Sequence record: PV577658 | Origin: Escherichia phage vB_EcoS_MM-2 | DNA: 64,000 bases | Strand: one strand, 5' to 3' | Shown: piece after piece, positions 1 through 12,118 of the stretch | Numbering within the stretch: the first letter of the stretch is position 1 | Layout of the letters: every line of letters starts with the position of its first letter | The notes under the pieces: model-generated | What the model saw: only the letters and a program-made list of their open reading frames with translations | Databases searched by the model: none | Told to the model about the DNA's origin: nothing | Position numbers and translations under genes: made by a program

Positions 1-234
1 GGAACAAATCTAGATGTATCACCTTATAATCCATATTGCTTGTTTGATGAAGACAGAGATGAAGTAAAATGTAATCTTGAATTTGTGTATAATAGAGTGC
101 TAAAAGTATACCAACGTAGCCCCCATGGGTACGAAGATATTACTTGGAGTATTAAACAATATCTTAAAGATGTATACTCTAGTTTTTCTGATGAAGACCT
201 AGAAACAGTTGCAGTGGAGTTTAATAATGACTAA
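1..234 (+). CDS. hypothetical protein, probably 5'-truncated by the window edge
   Basis: Frame of track ORF 40..234 stays open back to base 1 with no stop; no recognisable motif. Confidence 0.35.
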   Translation, partial: GTNLDVSPYNPYCLFDEDRDEVKCNLEFVYNRVLKVYQRSPHGYEDITWSIKQYLKDVYSSFSDEDLETVAVEFNND

Positions 235-433
235 GAATGTGAAACACCTTAAATATCGCTTAATTTACAACGGACGTATGGAAACGGAAGACCTGGCCAA
301 ATTAGCTATTAACTCTAATGAGGTTACAGTGCGTGCGCTGGCAATTGAAAAGTTGCGTGCCTCTTATGAAAATCGTGTTATGGAACTAGAGGAGAAACTT
401 TATGGCATTCTCGAAGCCGATGCTACCAGATAA
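209..433 (+). CDS. hypothetical small early protein
   Basis: Track ORF, tightly packed with neighbours on the same strand; no recognisable motif. Confidence 0.4.
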   Translation: MQWSLIMTKNVKHLKYRLIYNGRMETEDLAKLAINSNEVTVRALAIEKLRASYENRVMELEEKLYGILEADATR

Positions 434-623
434 GGGTTTAAACGCCGCTTTGGAAAACGCATTAATGCAGCACTGGGAAACTGGCTATAAGGATGGTGTT
501 GAATCCTGCGCTACTATGCTAGAAGTTATTGCTAATACCTTAATGGAGAAAGGCAATAAAGAATTAGCTGAGCTATTAGACAGTATTGGGCAAAACTTCA
601 GAGAACAGGTGAAAAATGCGTAG
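402..623 (+). CDS. hypothetical small early protein
   Basis: Track ORF; stop overlaps the start of the Sir2-like gene. Confidence 0.4.
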   Translation: MAFSKPMLPDKGLNAALENALMQHWETGYKDGVESCATMLEVIANTLMEKGNKELAELLDSIGQNFREQVKNA

Positions 624-1452
624 ATTAATTATTATTAGCGGTGCAGGTTTGAGTGTTGAAAGTGGTGTACGAGCTTTTCGTACTGATACTGCTAGTGGTA
701 AAGCATTGTGGGATGACTATGATCTAGAAGAAGTATGTAATATTCATGCCTTTCGTGGTAATTTTTATCATAAAACCCACATGTTTTACAACAAGCGTCG
801 TGAAGAGCTAAAAACTGTTGAACCCAATCTTGCGCATTTGCGTATTGGTGAATGGTATAAACAATATCCAGGTCAAGTAGTAAACTTGACTACCAACGTT
901 GATGACCTTATTGAGCGTGCTGGCGTCCCACATAGTGACATTCTGCACATTCACGGATATTTAAAAGAGGTTGTTGTAGCTGATAGCTACAATAGTAGCA
1001 ATAAACGGATTATTGATGTAGGATACAATTCTATTGATCCAGATGATTATAAATGGGTTAAACCTAATGTAATCTTCTTTGGAGAGCATGCTCCTGCATA
1101 CGCAGAAATGTATAATGTTTTTGATGGTATTACCAGTCAAGATATGATCATTGTGGTTGGTTGCTCTAACCAAGTAATTAACTTCTACTGGGAATTATTT
1201 CCTGTTCTTAATTTGACTGCTGCGAAACTTATGGTTGTTAACTACTATGATAGTGCCCTCGCAGCGGAACCGGTCTATCAAGGTATGACTCGTAGTGAGA
1301 TGTACCAGCTGGAGGAACGCGGTATCCCTTACTGGAGTAAAGGTGCGGTAGATGCTTTCAGTGACCCTGATTTTATTGCTCGTGTAGAAGCTCATTTAGA
1401 GGGTAGACCTTATGTGTCGAGAAGCAAGAGAAACAGGTATGTCCATAGTTAA
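616..1452 (+). CDS. Sir2-family (sirtuin-like) NAD-binding protein, apparently lacking the Zn-ribbon module
   Basis: Motifs SGAGLSVESGVRAFR (Sir2 GAGIS..SGIP.FR), TTNVDDLIERAG (TQNID-like), HIHGYL (catalytic His), VIFFGEH, VVGCSNQV. No Cys-x2-Cys pairs between the His motif and the FGE motif. Confidence 0.7.
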   Translation: MRRLIIISGAGLSVESGVRAFRTDTASGKALWDDYDLEEVCNIHAFRGNFYHKTHMFYNKRREELKTVEPNLAHLRIGEWYKQYPGQVVNLTTNVDDLIERAGVPHSDILHIHGYLKEVVVADSYNSSNKRIIDVGYNSIDPDDYKWVKPNVIFFGEHAPAYAEMYNVFDGITSQDMIIVVGCSNQVINFYWELFPVLNLTAAKLMVVNYYDSALAAEPVYQGMTRSEMYQLEERGIPYWSKGAVDAFSDPDFIARVEAHLEGRPYVSRSKRNRYVHS

Positions 1453-1621
1453 ATCTGTATATACACATCCCGACGATATATTTGTATGGGCAGATGGTAG
1501 TTGGTGCTATCGCTGTGAGCTGTGGGAGATGGACTATAAATCCGATGACTATGGTGTTATATATGTTGATACGGTTGAGTATGATACGTTCTTAGAAAGG
1601 AACAAAAATGGAAATAAGTAA
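1412..1621 (+). CDS. hypothetical protein (likely starts at internal Met near 1439)
   Basis: Track ORF overlapping the Sir2-like gene end; no motif. Confidence 0.35.
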   Translation: MCREARETGMSIVKSVYTHPDDIFVWADGSWCYRCELWEMDYKSDDYGVIYVDTVEYDTFLERNKNGNK

Positions 1622-2114
1622 TACTCCAATTATTTTTCTAGATATTGATGGGGTGCTCAATTCGAGCATCTCCCACCATCATGCACCTGATGACGAAAAG
1701 ATTTTCTTTGGAAGTGACTGGGTTTTCAAGCCGCTTCTCAAGGCTTTTCAGGACTTTATTCGTCCTTCTCCAATAATGATTGTTGGAGTATCATCTTGGT
1801 TCTCTGTCAGAAATGAGATGGAGAACGTTCAGATTATGACCGGATTAGGTCTTATCGATCGTTTTCTTGGTACAACGGATTTTACTGGGGGTGGGTTATC
1901 TAGGGGTAATTCTGTCCTTCGCTTCGTTGAAAAGCATAAGCTCAAACATTGGTGTGTTCTGGATGACGCTGGTGCTATGATGTATCAGTATCCAACGGTT
2001 ATAGTCAACGGTAGAACTGGAATAAATCTTCAAGATTTAATGGCTGTTAGCTATATGTTAGAGTTTAGTCCAGATCTTGAAATGTGTAAATCCTTACAAC
2101 AATTTAAGGTGTAA
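1608..2114 (+). CDS. HAD-superfamily phosphatase-like protein
   Basis: N-terminal FLDIDGVLN (HAD motif I, DxDG[TV]); remainder not assignable by eye. Confidence 0.5.
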   Translation: MEISNTPIIFLDIDGVLNSSISHHHAPDDEKIFFGSDWVFKPLLKAFQDFIRPSPIMIVGVSSWFSVRNEMENVQIMTGLGLIDRFLGTTDFTGGGLSRGNSVLRFVEKHKLKHWCVLDDAGAMMYQYPTVIVNGRTGINLQDLMAVSYMLEFSPDLEMCKSLQQFKV

Positions 2115-2116
2115 AT

Positions 2117-2545
2117 ATGTTCAATAATGTATTCTCTAAAGAAGCTAACCCAATTTTGGTTAACTTTTGGCGTACTCTCCCAGCTAGCCTGTATAATGAG
2201 GCTATTAACTCCTTGAAAATATGGTGTGAGAATAACGAAATCTCCTTTGCTTTTAAAGATGATATTGATGAGGCCCCCTGTATTGGTTTAATTGTGCAGG
2301 TAGAGGATGGTCTTGAAGAGATTGTCGGCTGGAAAGAGTTAGATGAAATGGGCTTAATTTTTGCGTTAAACTATAAGCTGTTTATGCCTGCTAAGCATCG
2401 CCTAGTTGTTAACTATAAAACTAGTGAATCTCCTGGTTTTCAGGTTAATGAACGTTATGGTTGGTCTTACTCACCGGAAGAAGTAAATGAGGGGATTCAG
2501 AAACTTCGACGTTTCGGGTATATGATCCCAGGTTTAACTGCTTAA
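2117..2545 (+). CDS. hypothetical protein, paralog 1 of a tandem pair
   Basis: Clear similarity to the downstream ORF: shared PCIG, W.EL..MGLI.ALN..LF.P, and C-terminal G(Y/I)(M/Y)(I/V)PGL. Confidence 0.5.
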   Translation: MFNNVFSKEANPILVNFWRTLPASLYNEAINSLKIWCENNEISFAFKDDIDEAPCIGLIVQVEDGLEEIVGWKELDEMGLIFALNYKLFMPAKHRLVVNYKTSESPGFQVNERYGWSYSPEEVNEGIQKLRRFGYMIPGLTA

Positions 2546-2554
2546 GGAGGCAGA

Positions 2555-2946
2555 ATGGAACAAGTATATTGGCGTCAGATTGACCCTAGTTTGGTGAAAC
2601 GTGCGGAGAAGCTGCTACAACGTTGGTTGTGGGTAAGACAAGCCTCCTTCACTTTTCCGAGCAGCAAACAGATGATCCCTGTATTGGTGTTTTCCTATCC
2701 GGCTACGCCGGGGAATGGGAATTGGATTGGAATGAATTGTCTGCTATGGGTTTAATTGTTGCCCTAAATTTCTCTTTGTTCCATCCACGTGGGTTGGCCA
2801 TACGTCGTGTGCCGGGTGATGGTTGTTCGCCCCATTTTTTACAGGTGGAAGATGATATTTGGGAGTACACTCCAGATATTCTCGCAGAAGCTAAAGAACA
2901 ATTAAATCGTGTTGGGATTTATGTTCCAGGCCTAAATGATGAATGA
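2555..2946 (+). CDS. paralog 2 of the tandem pair, reading frame interrupted (needs a -1 shift near 2653-2656)
   Basis: Track ORF 2555..2755 (frame 2) ends in ASFTF and track ORF 2623..2946 (frame 1) continues SEQQTDDPCIG; joined they align with paralog 1 (ISFAFKDDIDEAPCIG). Confidence 0.4.
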
Positions 2947-3031
2947 TTTTTATTAGCTGAAATTTGTAATCCGGGCTATTAGTGCTCGGATTATTACATA
3001 ATCTTTTCAGTCGATTGACAGTCAAAATAAA

Positions 3032-3538
3032 TTGTCGTTGACAATTTGGATGGATTATGTAATAATATATGTATTGGAGGTGAGGATGTCATTCACACAG
3101 CAAGAACTTTTAGATAACTTCCGATATGAAGATGGTAAGTTATTTAGAACTACAGGAAGAAATGCAGGGAAAGAATGTTGTGTTTCTACAGGTAACGGAT
3201 ATTATCGTATATCTCTAGGGAATAGGACTATGCTTCGGCATAGAGCAATATTTTTAATGCATCATGGATACTTACCTGATTTAGTAGATCATGTGAATAC
3301 TATAAAAGGTGATGATCGTATTGAAAATCTTAGAGAGCAGACAGTATCCGGTAATCTAAGAAATATCAAATATAAGAAAGGAATGCATGTTTACCCTTCT
3401 GGTAGTAAGAACTGGCAAGTGGTATTTACTATTAACCGTAAACGTATAGTTAAAGGAACATATGACAACTATGAGGTTGCATGTTCTATGGCCAAGATGT
3501 TTAGAGGTCAATTATACGGTAGGGAATCAATCCAGTAA
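3032..3538 (+). CDS. HNH homing endonuclease (likely start at Met ~3086)
   Basis: HNH motif LVDHVNTIKGDDRIENLREQT; free-standing between unrelated genes. Confidence 0.7.
   Translation: MSLTIWMDYVIIYVLEVRMSFTQQELLDNFRYEDGKLFRTTGRNAGKECCVSTGNGYYRISLGNRTMLRHRAIFLMHHGYLPDLVDHVNTIKGDDRIENLREQTVSGNLRNIKYKKGMHVYPSGSKNWQVVFTINRKRIVKGTYDNYEVACSMAKMFRGQLYGRESIQ
3038..3066 (+). promoter_or_regulatory. sigma70-like promoter upstream of the HNH gene, inside a TTGACAGTCAA palindrome region
   Basis: Two TTGACA hexamers (~3014 and ~3038), AT-rich -10 (aataat) 17 bp downstream of the second, then GGAGGTGA RBS. Confidence 0.4.
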
Positions 3539-3546
3539 AATTTCAT

Positions 3547-3600
3547 TTGCAAGGGAGTATTATTTTATAGTATAATATTCCCATAAATGAGAGACATTAG
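3547..3600 (+). promoter_or_regulatory. early-type promoter (TTGCAA-18-TATAAT plus conserved downstream box)
   Basis: ttgcaa ... tataat followed by attcccataaatgagag, a variant of the ATTCATAAATTTGAGAG box seen after other promoters in the window. Confidence 0.55.
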
Positions 3601-4073
3601 TAAAAATTGATTTTGCTAATTTTTCTTGTTTACAATCCGCGATACGGAACAGTTAGGCTGCCCCATTAAGGGTTGTTTTAACTGTTACGTGTTAGTTTTT
3701 AAACAAATAGTTAATAGAATACTTAGCGATCTACATCCCGTAGGAACCCTGGTAAGGCCTCGAAGCAACCTAGTGTGAGGTGGTTGTGAAGTGAGACGGG
3801 AAGAGTGAAAAACTCTGAGAAGTGATGACGTAAGGTATACTGCATCTAGTATGAGCTAGTACATGAAGCATTAGGTGAGCAAATCTGGCTTAGCGGCCAT
3901 CCTCAAGGATTTGTGCGGTATAGTGAAGCGGCAGTGTAGCGTGAAAGGGGAAGTTGCCACCCCCCTTCAGTATTTGCGATTAATTTGTTGAGAAATTGAC
4001 AGTAACAGTTGTTCTATTCTTTCTGAATAGTCCTAAAGAAAACTTATTTCATTTCCAACACAGGAGTATTGTT
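3601..4073 (+). other. ~470 bp non-coding, relatively GC-rich region downstream of a promoter; candidate ncRNA or cis-acting replication element
   Basis: No ORF of 60 aa or more on either strand; local stem-loops (e.g. gaaagggg..cccccttc near 3943-3968); sits directly upstream of the large helicase gene. Confidence 0.3.
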
Positions 4074-6860
4074 GTGTTCTCAATCCTACAAGGTCATGCA
4101 GGATTTCATCGCGATTTAGCCACAGGCATTTGGCGAGAAGTTAAAGCAGAAGACTATCTTTTTGCTAAAAGATTTTCCTCAAAGCATCCTGAAGGTAAAC
4201 CAGCTTCAATGCCCTTCAAGTTTGATGTAATTGATGAAGTTGATCCTCAAACCCTAGTAGAAATGCTCCCTCTTATGAGACGTTTAACGTCTGACCCTCA
4301 TATCGTTGCGGTACGAGGTCGATGTCTTGCACCCAAAAATAATGTGCGGCGTAAGAAGGGCAACTTTAATGTATCTAACCCAAGTCATATAATTGCAATG
4401 GACGTGGATGGTATTGTAGATACAGGTGGTTGTAACAAGTTTGATCTTGTTGGCATGGCTCGACATATTATTAGAATGTTAAATAGTATTAGTGAGGATA
4501 TGTTTCCTCTTGATGCAGGGTTTATTGCTCATGCATCGTCTTCGGCTGGGCTAAAACCAGGTATCCGAATGCACTTAATACTAGAATCTAATGTTAAAGT
4601 AACTCAGGGTCAAATCAAATTCTTATTTACATCTATCAATGAAAGTAGTAGACAAAAGTATGGCTTTGATATTGCCGACTTAGCTTATTACTCTTCCGTA
4701 CAGCTCCATTATTTTGCAGATCCGTTATTTACCGATGGTATAGTAGATCCGTTTAAGGCGGAGGGTGCTTCACGTCTGGTATTTGTTAAGGGTTCTAAAG
4801 TAAACTTACCTAATAATCTGGTTGACTATGAAACAACTAGAGGTGAGTTTAAGGAGGAGTTTTACTCTTTACTCGATCAAATTAAAGGTAAAAAAGCTGC
4901 CTCCGATAAAGTAGAGGAAACTATCAGCGAACTAGAAGAAGCTGAGGATGGAGTGTATCTACGTATCATACCTAAACTCTATCACAGAGCTTTAGAGGAT
5001 GGTGTTGATTTTGCATGGCTAGAAAAAGAAATCCGTCCAGCCTTATCAGAATATATTGCAACCAAAGATAATAGTCGTAATATTCAAGATTACTTTAATA
5101 ACGGTCGTAAACAGGCTCTGAAAGCATTTGTTAATAATTCTAAACGCGATATACCTGATGTTTTAAAAGGTATTCCACTTAAAAAGCTAGAAACTAACTC
5201 TCTAGAAACTGATAACTTCTTGAAATTAAATACTGTACCACCAGAAGGTTATATGACTTTTGTAAAAGCAAGTCTAGGTACAGGTAAAACTACGGCGGTT
5301 GTGCGTTGGTTAGATTCAGGAGTTATTAAAGGTAATTTCTTAGCAATTACCAATACTCGAGCACTGGTATCTTCAAATGCTAAGAAATTTAGTGCAGGAC
5401 AATATGATAAGTCTGTAGATATGCTTAATTTTAAGCGTGGTGCTATTGACCGTATGTCCACAACTATTCACTCTTTGCATAAGTTCAAGAGTTTTATTGG
5501 TCAAATCGATGCAATCTTTATAGATGAATGTGATGCTGTAATGAATGACCTATTATTCGCCCCGGTTGTTAAACAACGTCGTGAATGTATTCAGGTTCTT
5601 CGGGATATTCTTGCAACTGCAAAAATCATTATATTATCTGATGGGGATATTAGTGCAGAAACAATTGAAGCATATGGTTCTTTAATTGAGTTTGATAAAC
5701 CGGTTGCATTTTATAATCATCACCGAAAAATGCTATCAAAAGCTCATGCCTACGAGTTCCCTGATGAATCCAGTATTTGGGTTGCACTTCAGACTTCTCT
5801 AGAGATGGGTGAGAAATCTATCCTAGTATCTGACTGTGGGCCGGATGAACTGAATGAGAAGGGCATGGCGTTGCGTCGTAATACGGGTGCGTTAGTTAAG
5901 GAAATCCACTCAAACTCTACGTCTGATGTAGATATTCGACGTATTCTGGATTACACAACTAATGAGTTAATTGACCAACAAATTGATTGCTTATTATGTA
6001 GTCCATCCGTAACGAGTGGTGTTGACTTCAACTATTTTGATAACGTATTCGTTATTACTAGAACCAGTAACCAAGCGCCAAACATGCGTTTTCAAGCAAT
6101 CAGGCGCGACCGTGGTGCTCAGAACATTTATTATTTTATTGATAAATCTACGAGTGGATTCTCCGCAGGCTCTGAACAATATAATATTGATGAAGGTTGG
6201 CTGGAGTTAGCACAGCAATTATACGCACGTCGTAGGGAGCTGGAGTCTAGGAACTATACTAGTACTTTACGTTATTACTTGCTTGATCAGGGTGCAACTA
6301 TTGATATTTTCAGTGAAAGCTGGGGAACTATCGAAGGTGCAGGTAAAGAGTATACAGAAGAGCGAATCAAAGCCATTTTGTATTCAACTCCTGATTATTG
6401 TGCTCCACGCCATGCAGATGCATATGAAGCTAAACTACTTCTTGTTCGCTATTATCATCTTGAGTCTATTAAAGATGTAACAGTTGAGCATGTTGAGCAA
6501 TACATTAAGGATAAACCGAATGATCGAGCGGCATTCTTCCATAAAATGCACGAGATGTTCTGGGAAGATATTAAGAAGTGTTCAAATGTCACTATCAAAC
6601 CATTCATAGAAGCTCTGAAAGGCAAGAAGAAAGATTTCTTCCTTAAAACAGGTCAGAGTGCTAACCCAAAATATGCCAGAATGTATCTTGGTATGATGGG
6701 TATTGGCAAGGATATGAACACGGAGAATATTGTAGACTGGTACAGAACTTATTGTAAAATCGAGTGTATGCCAATTCCTTTCAAATTCATGACAGAGGAA
6801 GAGAAGGCTATGGCAGAAGAAGTACTGTCCGAACTTGGAGCAACTAATGAAGACGCATAA
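3996..6860 (+). CDS. large P-loop NTPase / helicase, putative replication initiation or origin-binding protein (probable start GTG ~4074)
   Basis: Walker A LGTGKTT and Walker B FIDECD; AGGAG RBS 7 nt before an in-frame GTG at ~4074; about 930-954 aa. Confidence 0.6.
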   Translation: MTVTVVLFFLNSPKENLFHFQHRSIVVFSILQGHAGFHRDLATGIWREVKAEDYLFAKRFSSKHPEGKPASMPFKFDVIDEVDPQTLVEMLPLMRRLTSDPHIVAVRGRCLAPKNNVRRKKGNFNVSNPSHIIAMDVDGIVDTGGCNKFDLVGMARHIIRMLNSISEDMFPLDAGFIAHASSSAGLKPGIRMHLILESNVKVTQGQIKFLFTSINESSRQKYGFDIADLAYYSSVQLHYFADPLFTDGIVDPFKAEGASRLVFVKGSKVNLPNNLVDYETTRGEFKEEFYSLLDQIKGKKAASDKVEETISELEEAEDGVYLRIIPKLYHRALEDGVDFAWLEKEIRPALSEYIATKDNSRNIQDYFNNGRKQALKAFVNNSKRDIPDVLKGIPLKKLETNSLETDNFLKLNTVPPEGYMTFVKASLGTGKTTAVVRWLDSGVIKGNFLAITNTRALVSSNAKKFSAGQYDKSVDMLNFKRGAIDRMSTTIHSLHKFKSFIGQIDAIFIDECDAVMNDLLFAPVVKQRRECIQVLRDILATAKIIILSDGDISAETIEAYGSLIEFDKPVAFYNHHRKMLSKAHAYEFPDESSIWVALQTSLEMGEKSILVSDCGPDELNEKGMALRRNTGALVKEIHSNSTSDVDIRRILDYTTNELIDQQIDCLLCSPSVTSGVDFNYFDNVFVITRTSNQAPNMRFQAIRRDRGAQNIYYFIDKSTSGFSAGSEQYNIDEGWLELAQQLYARRRELESRNYTSTLRYYLLDQGATIDIFSESWGTIEGAGKEYTEERIKAILYSTPDYCAPRHADAYEAKLLLVRYYHLESIKDVTVEHVEQYIKDKPNDRAAFFHKMHEMFWEDIKKCSNVTIKPFIEALKGKKKDFFLKTGQSANPKYARMYLGMMGIGKDMNTENIVDWYRTYCKIECMPIPFKFMTEEEKAMAEEVLSELGATNEDA

Positions 6861-7365
6861 ACCAATGCCTCCTATGGCATTTATCCTAGAAAAGCTTAGG
6901 TATGACGAAAGTACTGGGGACTTAATTTGGTTATCTGGCCCAAGGAAGGGAAAGGTAGCGGGCTCCAAAATGAAAACTGGGAGACAGCTAGAGTTTATGA
7001 TAAATGGGGGGCGGACAGCTTACTTAGCCCATAGAATAATCTGGTTTATAAAGACAGGTGAAGATCCTGGAGATAAAACTATTGACCATAAAGACGGTGA
7101 TAGTTTAAACAACTTGTGGGATAATTTACGTAAGGCTACCTATTCCGAAAATGGAAAGAATAAGAAGTGTTCTACTAATTCTACCGGATTCACTGGAGTT
7201 GTAAAACGAGGTAATAGGTATATGGCCTACGCTTACTGCGATGGAAAGCAACATATTTTTGGTAGACGAGATACCCCGGAAGAAGCCCATCAGCTATACC
7301 TTAGGGGAGTTAAAGAGCTGTTTGGTGAATTTAATCCCTCGGAGAGATATGACAGTGAAGAATAA
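6835..7365 (+). CDS. HNH homing endonuclease with AP2-like DNA-binding domain
   Basis: IDHKDGDSLNNLWDNLRKATYSEN (HNH); GFTGVVKRGNRYMAY (AP2-like); start overlaps the 3' end of the upstream gene. Confidence 0.7.
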   Translation: MEQLMKTHKPMPPMAFILEKLRYDESTGDLIWLSGPRKGKVAGSKMKTGRQLEFMINGGRTAYLAHRIIWFIKTGEDPGDKTIDHKDGDSLNNLWDNLRKATYSENGKNKKCSTNSTGFTGVVKRGNRYMAYAYCDGKQHIFGRRDTPEEAHQLYLRGVKELFGEFNPSERYDSEE

Positions 7366-7582
7366 AAAATGGGAAACAAGGAAGTTTCCAGTAAAAGAAC
7401 GTAAAGTTCCTGTTTATGATACTTCGGAGAAGCTATGTAGGGTGGTACCGCACAGATTAGCTGGCATCCCTAACATATCCGAGTGGTTACTTAAACAACG
7501 GAGGACTAGCGTATCCCTTCGCATAGGGTTTGAGTTAGATAAAGTATATGCTGAACTTTCTTCTTTGCTCAAGGAATCGTAA
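7241..7582 (+). CDS. hypothetical protein (likely start at internal Met ~7349)
   Basis: Track ORF; GGAGAG RBS precedes the internal ATG; no motif. Confidence 0.35.
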   Translation: MESNIFLVDEIPRKKPISYTLGELKSCLVNLIPRRDMTVKNKKWETRKFPVKERKVPVYDTSEKLCRVVPHRLAGIPNISEWLLKQRRTSVSLRIGFELDKVYAELSSLLKES

Positions 7583-7590
7583 AAATTTAT

Positions 7591-7650
7591 TTGCATAGTG
7601 CAAAAAATTTCTGTATAATAGATTCATAAATTTGAGAGAGGAGTTTAAAT
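7591..7650 (+). promoter_or_regulatory. strong early promoter of the T5 PN25 type
   Basis: aaaatttatttgcat(-35)..17 bp..tataat(-10) then agattcataaatttgagagaggagttt; matches my recollection of the PN25 promoter used in expression vectors. Confidence 0.65.
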
Positions 7651-8355
7651 ATGGCTGGTTCTCGTAGAAAGAAACATATCCATGAAATCCCGGATGAAGT
7701 CTTTAAAAAGGTTATAGAGCATCTGGAGAACGGTGGTACTAAGAAAGCAGCATGTGAAATGCTCGGCGTATCATCCAATCCAACTATGGAAAGGATGATT
7801 GAAGAATGGCAAGACCGCCAGATTCAAGTTGCCGAAATGAAGAAAAAGAAACGTGGCACACTCATTGAAGGCATTGAGTTAGCTAACGTTATTGAGCAGT
7901 ATTTATCTGGTGATTCTTTTGAAGAAATTGCCGATCGTAATTACCGCTCTGTAGCAATGGTTAAATCTGTTCTGGAACGATATGGTGCTCTACTTCGTTT
8001 GAACGATATTGTAGATCCATTGAATCCTCCAATTATTCCTGATGATGCTGTAGCAGAAGAATTTGCAGTTGGTGAGCTTGTTTGGGTTCCTGGATACCAG
8101 TGTATCGGTGAAATCAAAAAAGCAATGGATAATCCTGTTGGTTGCTACCGTGTATGGCTTCTATCCGAAGGCAAACAACAGAACGTTCATTATATGAATT
8201 ACGAGCTGGCTTCTGTTAAACATCTGGAAAAGTTAGGGGTAGACGTAAAATCTCTAGGGTATAAGTGGACTCGTGAAGAAATTATTACGTTGATTAACGA
8301 AGCTGTTAAGGCTGCTCTGAAACTTGATAAAGAAAAAGGAAAACGCCGTGAGTAA
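7651..8355 (+). CDS. putative helix-turn-helix DNA-binding / regulatory protein
   Basis: N-terminal GGTKKAACEMLGVS HTH-like segment; lysine-rich linker. Confidence 0.45.
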   Translation: MAGSRRKKHIHEIPDEVFKKVIEHLENGGTKKAACEMLGVSSNPTMERMIEEWQDRQIQVAEMKKKKRGTLIEGIELANVIEQYLSGDSFEEIADRNYRSVAMVKSVLERYGALLRLNDIVDPLNPPIIPDDAVAEEFAVGELVWVPGYQCIGEIKKAMDNPVGCYRVWLLSEGKQQNVHYMNYELASVKHLEKLGVDVKSLGYKWTREEIITLINEAVKAALKLDKEKGKRRE

Positions 8356-10164: not shown

Positions 10165-11136
10165 ATGACCAATGTAAAAGACTTTATTAAACGCTGTCAA
10201 GAAGCATATTATCAAGGTATGTCTTTAATCTCTGACGAAGAATATGATCGTCTGATTAAAAGATTTCCGTTAGAAGAAGAGATCGGGCCTAAGGGCGATA
10301 TTCCACATCTGTATCGTATGTATTCTTTACAGAAAGTTTATTATAATCGTGGAGATAAACCCCCGTTTAACCCATTAGGTCAGGTAGAAACTGATAAGTT
10401 AGATGGTTGTGCAATTTCTCTGTTATATATTAATGGCGAATTTGTTCAAGCACTAACTCGTGGTAACGGTATTCTAGGGAATGATGTCACAAGCAACGTA
10501 AGATTGCTGAACATCCCTAAAAAGATTTCCCAAAAAGTACCTACTCAAATCACTGGTGAAGTTCTAATTACAAAAGAAGTAGAAAATAAACGTAACTTTG
10601 CCTCTGGTGCTATTAACCTCAAAGATAGTGATGATTTTGTACAACGTATCGGAGAAGGTGGTTTAATCTTCGTTGCATATGGTATCCAGTGTTCTGCTGA
10701 ATCTGTAGGTATTACAGAAGCATATTTAAAAGATATGCTTTGGCTGGAGAATGAGAACTTCTTAACAGTTGTTAATGTGCGTTCTTTCTTTAAATGGATT
10801 CCGACGGACGGTAAAGTTGTTCGTATTAATGATAACAACAAATTCTTCCGTGAAGGCTGGACTAATAAATTCCCTCGTGGAGCATTCGCTATTAAAGAGG
10901 ATGAAGAAGGCGAGATTACAACTCTTACTAAAGTTGAATGGCAGGTAGGAGCTTCTGGTAAAGTAACTCCAGTTGGTTATTTCGAACCGGTAATTATTGA
11001 TGATGCTACAATTGTTAAAGCGACTCTTAATAACGTTGATTATATTAACTCTCTTGATCTAGAGATCGGTTGCCAGATTCGAGTGATTCGTGCTGGTGGT
11101 GTAATCCCGTGCATAGTAGAGCGAGTATATGATTAA
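10165..11136 (+). CDS. ligA: NAD-dependent DNA ligase, N-terminal subunit (adenylation domain)
   Basis: KxDG adenylation motif (TDKLDGCAIS), LTRGNG, and LigA-like layout. Confidence 0.75.
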   Translation: MTNVKDFIKRCQEAYYQGMSLISDEEYDRLIKRFPLEEEIGPKGDIPHLYRMYSLQKVYYNRGDKPPFNPLGQVETDKLDGCAISLLYINGEFVQALTRGNGILGNDVTSNVRLLNIPKKISQKVPTQITGEVLITKEVENKRNFASGAINLKDSDDFVQRIGEGGLIFVAYGIQCSAESVGITEAYLKDMLWLENENFLTVVNVRSFFKWIPTDGKVVRINDNNKFFREGWTNKFPRGAFAIKEDEEGEITTLTKVEWQVGASGKVTPVGYFEPVIIDDATIVKATLNNVDYINSLDLEIGCQIRVIRAGGVIPCIVERVYD

Positions 11137-11187
11137 TACATAGCCCTTTGCTACCCATCTACCATATCGGAATTATAAAGTGGTTAT

Positions 11188-11215
11188 TGACATTTTCGCC
11201 GCTTAGGTATATACT
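11188..11215 (+). promoter_or_regulatory. promoter-like element in the ligase inter-ORF spacer (TTGACA ... TATACT)
   Basis: ttgacattttcgccgcttaggtatatact. Confidence 0.4.
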
Positions 11216-11279
11216 ATTATCATTCAGTTGAGGGATAGAAAGTTATGGCGAGGGTAAGCAAAGTTAGTTAAAATTGTAG

Positions 11280-11330
11280 TTGCTAAATGCTTAAATACTT
11301 GTTATAATATTTATATAAATTGATAAGGAA
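11280..11330 (+). promoter_or_regulatory. early promoter (TTGCTA-17-TATAAT) upstream of the ligase C-terminal subunit
   Basis: ttgcta..tataat then atttatataaattgataagg; same family as the 9833 promoter. Confidence 0.55.
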
Positions 11331-11335
11331 GAAAT

Positions 11336-12118
11336 TTGATGAAAATCGAAATTCCAACACAATGTCCCTCTTGTGGTTCTAAGCTAGATCTTGTCAACGG
11401 ACAATTATTTTGTCGGAATAAGTCCAACTGTCCAGCGCAATCAAGTAAGTTAATTGAGAACTTCTGTACAAAAATGAAGTTAAAGGGCTTTGGTCCAAAA
11501 ACTATTGAAAAGCTGGAGCTGACGAAGATCTCAGAACTATTTTACCTAACCGAAGAAGATTTGGTTAGAGCCGTGGGTAGCAAGGTTGCCGCTAAGTTAA
11601 TTAGCGAATTAAATACTAAAGTTCGCGGAGACATTGACTTTGGTTCAGTTCTCGGTTCTTTAGGAATCCCTCTAATTGGAGAGGTTGCAGCAAAGAAATT
11701 ATCCCAAAATTGCACTAGCTTCCACGATGTGAAGGCTGACGGCAAGGCTGGAGAAAACTACAAAGCCTGGCTAAATTCCCCGCAAGGCAAGGATGTTATC
11801 GAACTACCGTGGAAATTCTCAACTGGTATTAAGGGCACTAAAGCTGACGTCATCATTACAGATGAATTAGTTGCCCAGCCAAATGGAATCGCGGTATGTA
11901 TTACCGGATCTTTGCAAGATTTTGCAAATCGAACGGATGCAACAAACTATTTAGAAAGTCTAGGGTATACGGTTAAGAAATCCGTTACCAAAGACGTAAA
12001 ATACCTGATCTGTGAGGATGAATCAAAACGTTCTTCCTCATCTTATAAGAAAGCCGAAACGAATGGGATAGAAATCCTGTCGATTAAAGAACTATTGGAG
12101 AAAAATAATAATGTCTAA
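11336..12118 (+). CDS. ligB: NAD-dependent DNA ligase, C-terminal subunit (Zn finger, HhH, BRCT-like)
   Basis: CPSCGSKLDLVNGQLFCRNKSNCPAQ Cys4 zinc finger typical of LigA; likely ATG at ~11339. Confidence 0.7.
   Translation: MMKIEIPTQCPSCGSKLDLVNGQLFCRNKSNCPAQSSKLIENFCTKMKLKGFGPKTIEKLELTKISELFYLTEEDLVRAVGSKVAAKLISELNTKVRGDIDFGSVLGSLGIPLIGEVAAKKLSQNCTSFHDVKADGKAGENYKAWLNSPQGKDVIELPWKFSTGIKGTKADVIITDELVAQPNGIAVCITGSLQDFANRTDATNYLESLGYTVKKSVTKDVKYLICEDESKRSSSSYKKAETNGIEILSIKELLEKNNNV

Follow-up and report, generated by a model that had tools for sequence, protein, structure and literature searches.

The closest described counterparts of the genes analysed here come from two reports on phage sirtuins. 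The genes form a block at positions 616-2946 of a 64,000-nucleotide (nt) stretch of Escherichia phage vB_EcoS_MM-2 (record PV577658; this whole stretch is called the window below) and encode a Sir2-like protein, a small protein of 60 amino acids (aa), a HAD phosphatase and two DUF7415 proteins. Skliros et al. (2016; PMC5107563) described the Sir2/CobB proteins of the Vibrio phages phiSt2, phiGrn1 and KVP40, which reportedly have no zinc ligands and for which salt bridges were proposed instead of the metal; the same work lists T5 as a sirtuin carrier and proposed, from modelling alone, that Acs and other host enzymes are deacetylated. Iyer, Burroughs, Anantharaman and Aravind (2022; Viruses 14:1977; PMC9503650) described a neighbourhood of a sirtuin and a Swiss-army-knife-type HAD, with SP15 as the type phage, and predicted that a distinct phage sirtuin clade acts on RNA 2'-phosphates in the manner of KptA/Tpt1. 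The genes of the block are already annotated, the pairing of Sir2 and HAD was published in 2022 and the zinc-less phage Sir2/CobB was reported in 2016.

The window comes from a T5-like phage, and the block lies in the early region and runs rightward. Positions 400-3100 are 100% identical to Escherichia phage vB_EcoS_MM-1 (PV577657.1, Tequintavirus, Demerecviridae); 446 phage records match this stretch, the nearest at 93-98% identity, and 187 of the 446 cover at least 80% of it. SP15, the 'type 3' of the 2022 report, has identical genes in identical order and is 93.6% identical over the block, with the Sir2 and HAD genes separated by the 60-aa open reading frame (ORF) only. The KVP40-like Sir2, in contrast, is ~40% identical to the T5 protein and belongs to another phage family, where it lies beside topoisomerase II and has no HAD. 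PMC9503650 does not discuss the loss of zinc, the DUF7415 pair, the 60-aa ORF or the relatives in Marinobacterium described below, and the function that it gives is a prediction. The literature search brought up no experiments on the sirtuins of T5 or of other phages; the 'Sir2' mentions in the PhageMaP preprint were rejected as phage-gene data, as they concern the host Sir2-HerA system.

A first-pass annotation of this DNA had taken the absence of zinc as the sign of an effector that degrades nicotinamide adenine dinucleotide (NAD+) or transfers ADP-ribose. We find instead a classical-type sirtuin that has lost its zinc ligands, and we tentatively favour a role as a CobB-like protein deacylase, with the HAD phosphatase acting separately. 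The features of the block are:

616..1452, + strand: Sir2-like gene, 278 aa; a CobB/class-III-type sirtuin with the NAD/catalytic site intact and the zinc-ligand cysteines gone
1439..1621, + strand: conserved 60-aa ORF, function-unassigned; overlaps the Sir2 stop and the HAD start
1608..2114, + strand: HAD_SAK_2-type phosphatase of the HAD superfamily, 168 aa
2117..2545, + strand: DUF7415 paralogue a, 142 aa, a phage-only orphan; matches PF24187 with 120.7 bits (cut-off 27)
2555..2946, + strand: DUF7415 paralogue b, disrupted; ATG at 2555 with a strong Shine-Dalgarno sequence, in pieces (ORFs 2555-2755 and 2623/2746-2946)

Fold, catalytic residues and zinc ligands of the sirtuin

The Sir2 motifs that the first-pass annotation had recognised at 616..1452 are present: GAGLSVESG (aa 9-17), TTNVDDL (92-98), HIHG (111-114) and FFGE (154-157). 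The protein matches the Pfam family SIR2 (PF02146) at E = 8e-25 with 88.2 bits (cut-off 24) over profile positions 1-178 of 180, no other Pfam family at E ≤ 1, and phrog_2162 at E = 1e-121; profile searches place it among the sirtuins and in no unrelated Rossmann family. The top NCBIfam matches are models of CobB-type deacylases, reached at scores below their cut-offs (100 bits against 243-320). The best sequence match in the PDB is Escherichia coli CobB (1s5p, E = 2e-17, 29% identity over 194 aa), followed by Sir2Af2, Sir2Af1 and SIRT5 and then by Sir2Tm, SIRT3 and SIRT2. An AlphaFold2 model was built on 50 homologues [mean predicted local distance difference test (pLDDT) score: 90.3]; its best match in Foldseek is again CobB [E = 1e-17, template modelling (TM) score: 0.85], with Sir2Af1, SIRT5, Sir2Af2 and SIRT2 next. 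The top PDB matches in sequence and fold are lysine deacylases throughout: CobB, Sir2Af1/2, SIRT5, SIRT3 (in sequence only), SIRT2 and Sir2Tm.

Among 50 diverse phage homologues the invariant residues are G9, A10, G11 and S13; F21 and R22; Y58 and R61; N94 and D96; H113 and G114; and F154, F155 and E157, so that the catalytic His (H113) and Asn (N94) are both fixed. G156 of the FFGE motif varies in a few of the 50, and the Gln of TQNxD is replaced by Thr. The class-III YxxR motif is present: F57-Y58-N-K-R61-R62 aligns with FYNARR of CobB, and Y58 and R61 correspond to Y92 and R95 of CobB (Y102 and R105 in SIRT5). The acyl-pocket residues A76, I131 and V162 of CobB align with C41, V95 and I132, which are small or hydrophobic. 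Judged by these residues, the protein binds NAD+ and has the complete equipment for nicotinamide cleavage and His-assisted ADP-ribosyl transfer. It shares with CobB, SIRT5 and Sir2Af1 the PF02146 match, GAGxS, FR, the N/D residues, the catalytic His, FGE, YxxR and the length of the small-domain segment; it differs from CobB in that all four zinc Cys are replaced, TQNID has become TTNVD, the VxP motif has become VINF and the segment bears a signature of its own. In pairwise comparisons of four T5-like phages the ratio of non-synonymous to synonymous substitution rates (dN/dS) is 0.05-0.10 for the Sir2 gene and 0.02-0.13 across all five genes, which marks the five as real and constrained and not as chance ORFs.

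The defence SIR2 NADases (ThsA, DSR1/2, SIR2-HerA, SIR2-pAgo) resemble the phage protein in their Rossmann-type NAD-binding, in often having no canonical zinc module and in consuming NAD+; the catalytic Asn and His are kept in them too. However, no family of the PADLOC-DB models matches any of the five block proteins at E ≤ 0.01, and no defence SIR2 is found among the top 50 fold matches of the sirtuin model. The phage protein is a single domain of 278 aa with no fused sensor or partner, its neighbours are the HAD gene, the DUF7415 genes and small ORFs, and it is encoded in the early region of a lytic phage and not in a host defence island. It belongs with the classical sirtuins and not with the SIR2 proteins of defence systems. 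The step from missing zinc to an NAD-degrading or ADP-ribosylating effector, taken in the first-pass annotation, fails on the exclusive match to PF02146, the empty PADLOC search, the CobB-like fold, the invariant YxxR and the zinc-less chromosomal genes of Marinobacterium (below).

Two cysteines only (C41 and C183) are present in the protein, and none from H113 to F154. The segment between HG and FGE measures 45 aa, against 46 aa in CobB; it is modelled as three strands (114-122, 131-134 and 147-152) with pLDDT above 90, and it carries the clade signature DVGY...DPDDY.W.KPNVVFFGE. From the CobB-like length, the three predicted strands and the conserved signature, the zinc-ribbon fold is predicted to be retained in the phage Sir2, with the Cys ligands alone lost. 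The missing ribbon of the first-pass annotation is thus borne out for the metal ligands but, according to the model, not for the fold. Among the 120 homologues listed, the segment holds 0-2 Cys wherever it can be delimited (about three-quarters of the 120).

The same feature is found outside phages. When one genome per prokaryotic species was scanned, the nearest cellular relatives (42-46% identity) were those of Marinobacterium and Haliea, which are Cys-free and mostly of the TTNVD type. In Marinobacterium the zinc-less sirtuin is a conserved chromosomal gene (stretches L016-L038, Haliea included); in at least seven of the fetched genomes it follows a Leu-dehydrogenase-like gene and a gene for an SNF-family transporter, and in at least five it is flanked on its other side by indolepyruvate-oxidoreductase-like genes. 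These surroundings are metabolic, not those of repair or defence. The relatives on a Paracoccus plasmid (L026) and in Rhodoblastus (L037), at 38-40% identity, have CxxC...CxxC and keep TQN(I/V)D, and they still carry the GY...KPNVVFF signature. Among the 150 best cluster representatives out of 1.84 billion clusters, the zinc-less sequences have Thr in T(T/Q)N(V/I)D 23 times and Gln nine times, and those with at least three Cys have Gln (TQN) 53 times and Thr eight times; loss of the zinc ligands and the Q to T change co-occur. Since the closest zinc-bearing relatives keep CxxC...CxxC, the loss is best read from these alignments as a derived trait of a large clade that is not restricted to phages and is not a separate family. 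The phage Sir2 is a zinc-ligand-free descendant of the CobB/class-III-type sirtuins with a predicted CobB-like two-domain fold.

The HAD phosphatase and the candidate substrates

The HAD-type phosphatase of the first-pass annotation is confirmed at 1608-2114 by a match to PF18143 (HAD_SAK_2; E = 4e-20, 73 bits, cut-off 27.5) and by catalytic residues, D12/D14 (DxD), S62-S63-W64 (SSW) and D119-D120 (LDD), that are invariant in homologues at 32-37% identity. Its dN/dS is 0.02-0.09, and a search of PDB sequences returned nothing at E ≤ 10. DxD, the Ser/Thr of motif II and the DD of motif IV are shared with the HAD domains of RNA repair (HAD_SAK_2; cf. the T4 Pnkp phosphatase), but the phage protein stands alone at 168 aa and has no fused kinase, ligase or nuclease. 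High-identity homologues are confined to T5-like phages. HAD_SAK_2 homologues of ~33% identity occur in T4-like Aeromonas and Proteus phages, adjoining td/frd in Aeromonas phage Ah1 and near a dCTPase-like gene in Proteus phage PM2, with no Sir2 near either in the stretches fetched. The family phrog_18062, which is labelled 'Sir2', corresponds to the C-terminal half of the HAD protein, and Pharokka-annotated records consequently name the HAD gene 'Sir2 NAD-dependent deacetylase'.

Relatives of the sirtuin were found by tblastn in 1,007 phage records of a collection of 50,697, in T5-like, rV5-like, PVP-SE1-like, phAPEC8-like, KVP40-like and jumbo phages. The surroundings of Sir2 elsewhere are:

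Sugarlandvirus KPN4: Sir2, small ORF and two DUF7415 genes in the T5 order; HAD missing
Vequintavirus ECP2309 and Klebsiella phage K54_rec1: Metallophos, AAA_33 kinase, RNA_lig_T4_1, cREC_REC, Sir2 and MazG-like genes
Eneladusvirus (jumbo): NMNAT/Nudix, NAMPT and Nudix genes around Sir2
T4-like contig from a metagenome-assembled genome (MAG): NAMPT directly upstream of Sir2; endoVII-nrdD-nrdG downstream
phAPEC8 and KVP40-like phage: surroundings uninformative

In Erwinia phage pEa_SNUABM_47 (stretch L015, 812-6671) the Sir2 relative adjoins NAMPT and NMNAT/Nudix genes. The T4-like contig with Sir2 beside NAMPT (L034, 2086-7669) is binned as 'Bacilli' and is apparently a phage contig mis-binned into a bacterial MAG. 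The adjacency of Sir2 and NAMPT suggests recycling of the nicotinamide that the sirtuin releases. Genes for NAD+ reconstitution of the NARP type (NAMPT/NMNAT or Adps/Namat) are seen only beside these relatives elsewhere and are not annotated in the present phage.

Sir2 and HAD are separable. Sugarlandvirus has Sir2 without HAD, the Ah1 and PM2 stretches have HAD without Sir2, and in MK907269.1 (51516-53183), where the T5-like synteny is conserved, Sir2 is 51.5% and the adjacent downstream HAD 89.9% identical to the window. The T5 Sir2 is moreover nearer to the Klebsiella (KPP-1, K54_rec1) and PVP-SE1 proteins (~60-62%) than to that of Epseptimavirus (~52%). From the mismatch in MK907269.1 and these identities across families Sir2 behaves as an exchangeable cassette, which suggests replacement between phage families.

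Our preferred, still tentative, assignment of the sirtuin is that of a CobB-like protein deacylase beside a HAD protein that acts on its own. Sir2 would cleave nicotinamide from NAD+ and move ADP-ribose to an oxygen nucleophile in a CobB-like hydrophobic tunnel; the nucleophile would most likely be an acyl-lysine of host or phage proteins, carrying either acetyl or an acidic group such as succinyl, and a deacylase supplied by the phage may reset protein acylation early in infection. The HAD_SAK_2 protein would be an active phosphatase with an Asp nucleophile, probably separate from the sirtuin and working on nucleotide or nucleic-acid phosphates. Protein acyl-lysine is ranked first on account of the family, the fold, YxxR, the hydrophobic acyl-pocket positions, the metabolic setting of the cellular orthologues and the separability of Sir2 and HAD.

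Several points weigh against a deacylase. The zinc module is required for canonical sirtuin activity, and in this clade the zinc ligands are gone, the Gln of TQNxD is Thr and the VxP motif (GTSGHV[YP] in CobB) reads VINF; the substrate site may therefore differ from that of CobB. Biochemical or genetic data on members of the clade, T5 included, were not found in the literature. The orthologous Sir2 of two further phage lineages (58-62% identity) lies within a cluster of RNA ligase, cREC, kinase and phosphoesterase genes, and in T5 its neighbour is of the HAD type named for RNA-repair proteins; the clusters and the HAD type together are a pointer to RNA ends and not to proteins.

A role in the repair of RNA ends is ranked a close second, if less likely than not. 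The sirtuin would act like Tpt1/KptA, bringing ADP-ribose onto an RNA 2'-phosphate and releasing ADP-ribose 1'',2''-cyclic phosphate; the 2'-phosphate would be left by a host anticodon nuclease or another metal-independent RNase, and HAD_SAK_2 would trim terminal 2'/3' phosphates. The chemistry of sirtuins, attack on C1'' and then His-assisted attack by the ribose 2'-OH, parallels the two steps of Tpt1, but we know of no sirtuin that acts on RNA. Tpt1/KptA is the functional analogue proposed in PMC9503650, through NAD+-dependent ADP-ribosyl transfer to an oxygen nucleophile and subsequent ribose 2'-OH attack, and section 3.7.3 of that report names this neighbourhood; its fold, however, is unrelated (ART superfamily), and no experimental follow-up of the prediction was found in the literature. 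The HAD_SAK_2 type of the phosphatase, the company of Sir2 in ECP2309 and K54_rec1 and the wealth of tRNA genes in T5-like phages (23 in the MM-1 genome) argue for RNA as the substrate. On the other side, a tblastn search of the MM-1 genome (E < 0.01) with the RNA ligase (Rnl), cREC, AAA_33 kinase, Metallophos and MazG proteins of Sir2-bearing rV5-like/Mydo-like phages found no homologue, although remote homologues are possible, and no RNA ligase is annotated in it; HAD is missing from Sugarlandvirus, the phAPEC8 and KVP40-like contexts are uninformative, the HAD_SAK_2 proteins of the two T4-like phages lie in nucleotide-metabolism surroundings and the Marinobacterium orthologues lie among metabolic genes.

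It is improbable that the pair serves a small-molecule pathway, in which Sir2 would modify a base or metabolite with an ADP-ribosyl or phosphoribosyl group and HAD would dephosphorylate the product, by analogy with CobT/CobC. The block lies in a nucleotide-metabolism region, with nrdAB, td and frd in the vicinity and nrdD a short way upstream; T4-like homologues of HAD_SAK_2 stand beside td/frd or a dCTPase-like gene; a short DUF7415 ORF lies between nrdD and nrdG in Jiaodavirus; and a CobT-like side activity of CobB has been reported (PMC9503650). Yet Sir2 and HAD come apart across phages, the sequences indicate no small-molecule acceptor, and the case is purely analogical.

The NAD-dependent DNA ligase of the phage is annotated as two coding sequences with a 200-nt gap (window ~10165-12118; record 64096-66049). 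Because of this ligase the replication of the phage needs NAD+, though the phage also encodes an NAD-consuming sirtuin. Most improbable is the first-pass reading of a free NADase or ADP-ribosylating effector, whether its task were to deplete or rewire the NAD+ of the host or to counter NAD-depleting defences. The motifs mean that the enzyme must consume NAD+, and the NAMPT, NMNAT and Nudix neighbours of relatives in a jumbo phage and a T4-like contig do link the clade to NAD turnover; some influence on NAD or ADP-ribose metabolism is conceivable. But neither the PADLOC models nor the top 50 fold matches show a resemblance to defence SIR2, a sensor or partner is lacking, bulk depletion would harm a phage that relies on NAD+ for its ligase, the published reading is RNA-end repair and not NAD depletion (PMC9503650), and countering such defences finds no support, an NAD consumer being unable to restore NAD+ and no NAD-synthesis gene being annotated in the block or at record positions 1-50,000 and 57,000-106,999 (annotation only).

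Small genes, gene order and transcription

The conserved ORF at 1439-1621, between the Sir2 and HAD genes, had been overlooked in the first-pass annotation. It matches phrog_5116 (E = 1e-29) and no Pfam family, is annotated in EC148, 8sent1748 and ECOP18, and is under purifying selection (dN/dS 0-0.12); a homologue of 43% identity occupies the same position in Sugarlandvirus KPN4.

The two small tandem paralogues recognised in the first-pass annotation are both DUF7415 genes, 33-36% identical to each other, but the second begins at 2555 and is frameshifted in this phage, so that 2623-2946 is a 3' fragment only (PF24187: E = 4e-16, 59.4 bits, cut-off 27). One G is lost at ~2659 (CCGGAG to CCGAG). 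An intact 393-nt ORF is present in EC148, 8sent1748 and ECOP18, and restoring the base here gives 130 aa. In a search of the 50,697 phage records the deletion was found in MM-1 only, where the gene is annotated as two separate 'hypothetical proteins' of 66 aa each. The frameshift is either a real inactivation or an error of sequencing or assembly; a programmed frameshift was rejected, since the ORF is uninterrupted in three other T5-like phages and no other phage record searched shares the deletion.

DUF7415 was seen in phage or phage-like sequences only, with two copies in T5-like phages and Sugarlandvirus, and a PDB search with its profile gave nothing at E ≤ 10. We infer that the pair are phage-only orphans and, from the disruption of paralogue b in this isolate, that the phage can do without one copy. 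In a T4-like Jiaodavirus (Klebsiella phage 15882-6-2; L005, 3480-3713), nrdD and nrdG flank a single-domain DUF7415 ORF of 77 aa; the DUF7415 genes of T5-like phages are also a few kilobases downstream of nrdD, a possible tie to the anaerobic ribonucleotide reductase. In public records these genes are mislabelled as 'exonuclease', 'tail tube protein' or 'Phage exonuclease (ACLAME 70)'.

The order over the block is nrdD, three small ORFs, Sir2, the 60-aa ORF, HAD, two DUF7415 genes, an HNH homing endonuclease and a replication-origin-binding protein. The flanking features in the window are:

209-433 and 402-623, + strand: two small upstream ORFs in a tightly packed gene run; phrog_5236 and phrog_5827, both function-unassigned families
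3032-3538: HNH_3 homing endonuclease; start codon (ATG) at 3086, preceded by a strong Shine-Dalgarno sequence

The ORF at 402-623 shares 8 nt with the start of the Sir2 gene, and the genes of the block overlap by 8-14 nt or are spaced by 2-9 nt. This tight spacing fits the co-transcription claimed in the first-pass annotation, which is plausible on that ground, but promoter and terminator scans of the block region gave no more matches than shuffled sequence. Inside 616-2946 only weak ones were found, promoter-like sites with 9-10 of 12 positions and one terminator-like hairpin at 2814-2832. A perfect sigma-70 consensus promoter (12/12) lies directly upstream of nrdD (stretch L001, 3423-3451) and a terminator-like hairpin with a 10-base-pair stem right after it (L001, 5363-5387), both upstream of the window. 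An Rfam scan of positions 1-8000 (E ≤ 0.1) gave no match, and a tRNA scan of the window found none.

The HNH_3 gene is preceded by a sigma-70-like site (11/12, with the TG of an extended -10) at 3038-3066. It is missing from EC148 and apparently from many other T5-like phages, whose match ends near 2961, which marks it as a mobile insertion just after the block.

Significance for T5-like and other virulent phages

The block is a syntenic run of early auxiliary genes and not one obligate machine. Its sirtuin belongs to a clade that is a natural case of the sirtuin small domain apparently folding without zinc, and the protein is held under strong purifying selection while related genes occur in ~1,000 of 50,697 phage genomes from several families. 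Were repair of RNA ends to prove its role, no earlier sirtuin would have been shown to use nucleic acid as a substrate; with HAD_SAK_2 as its partner, the phage protein would mend tRNAs or other RNAs after cleavage by host anticodon nucleases, and T5-like phages would own an NAD-dependent arm of RNA repair that relies on a host ligase. The identity of the substrate would decide between large virulent phages that reprogramme host protein acylation and a new NAD-dependent chemistry of RNA repair.

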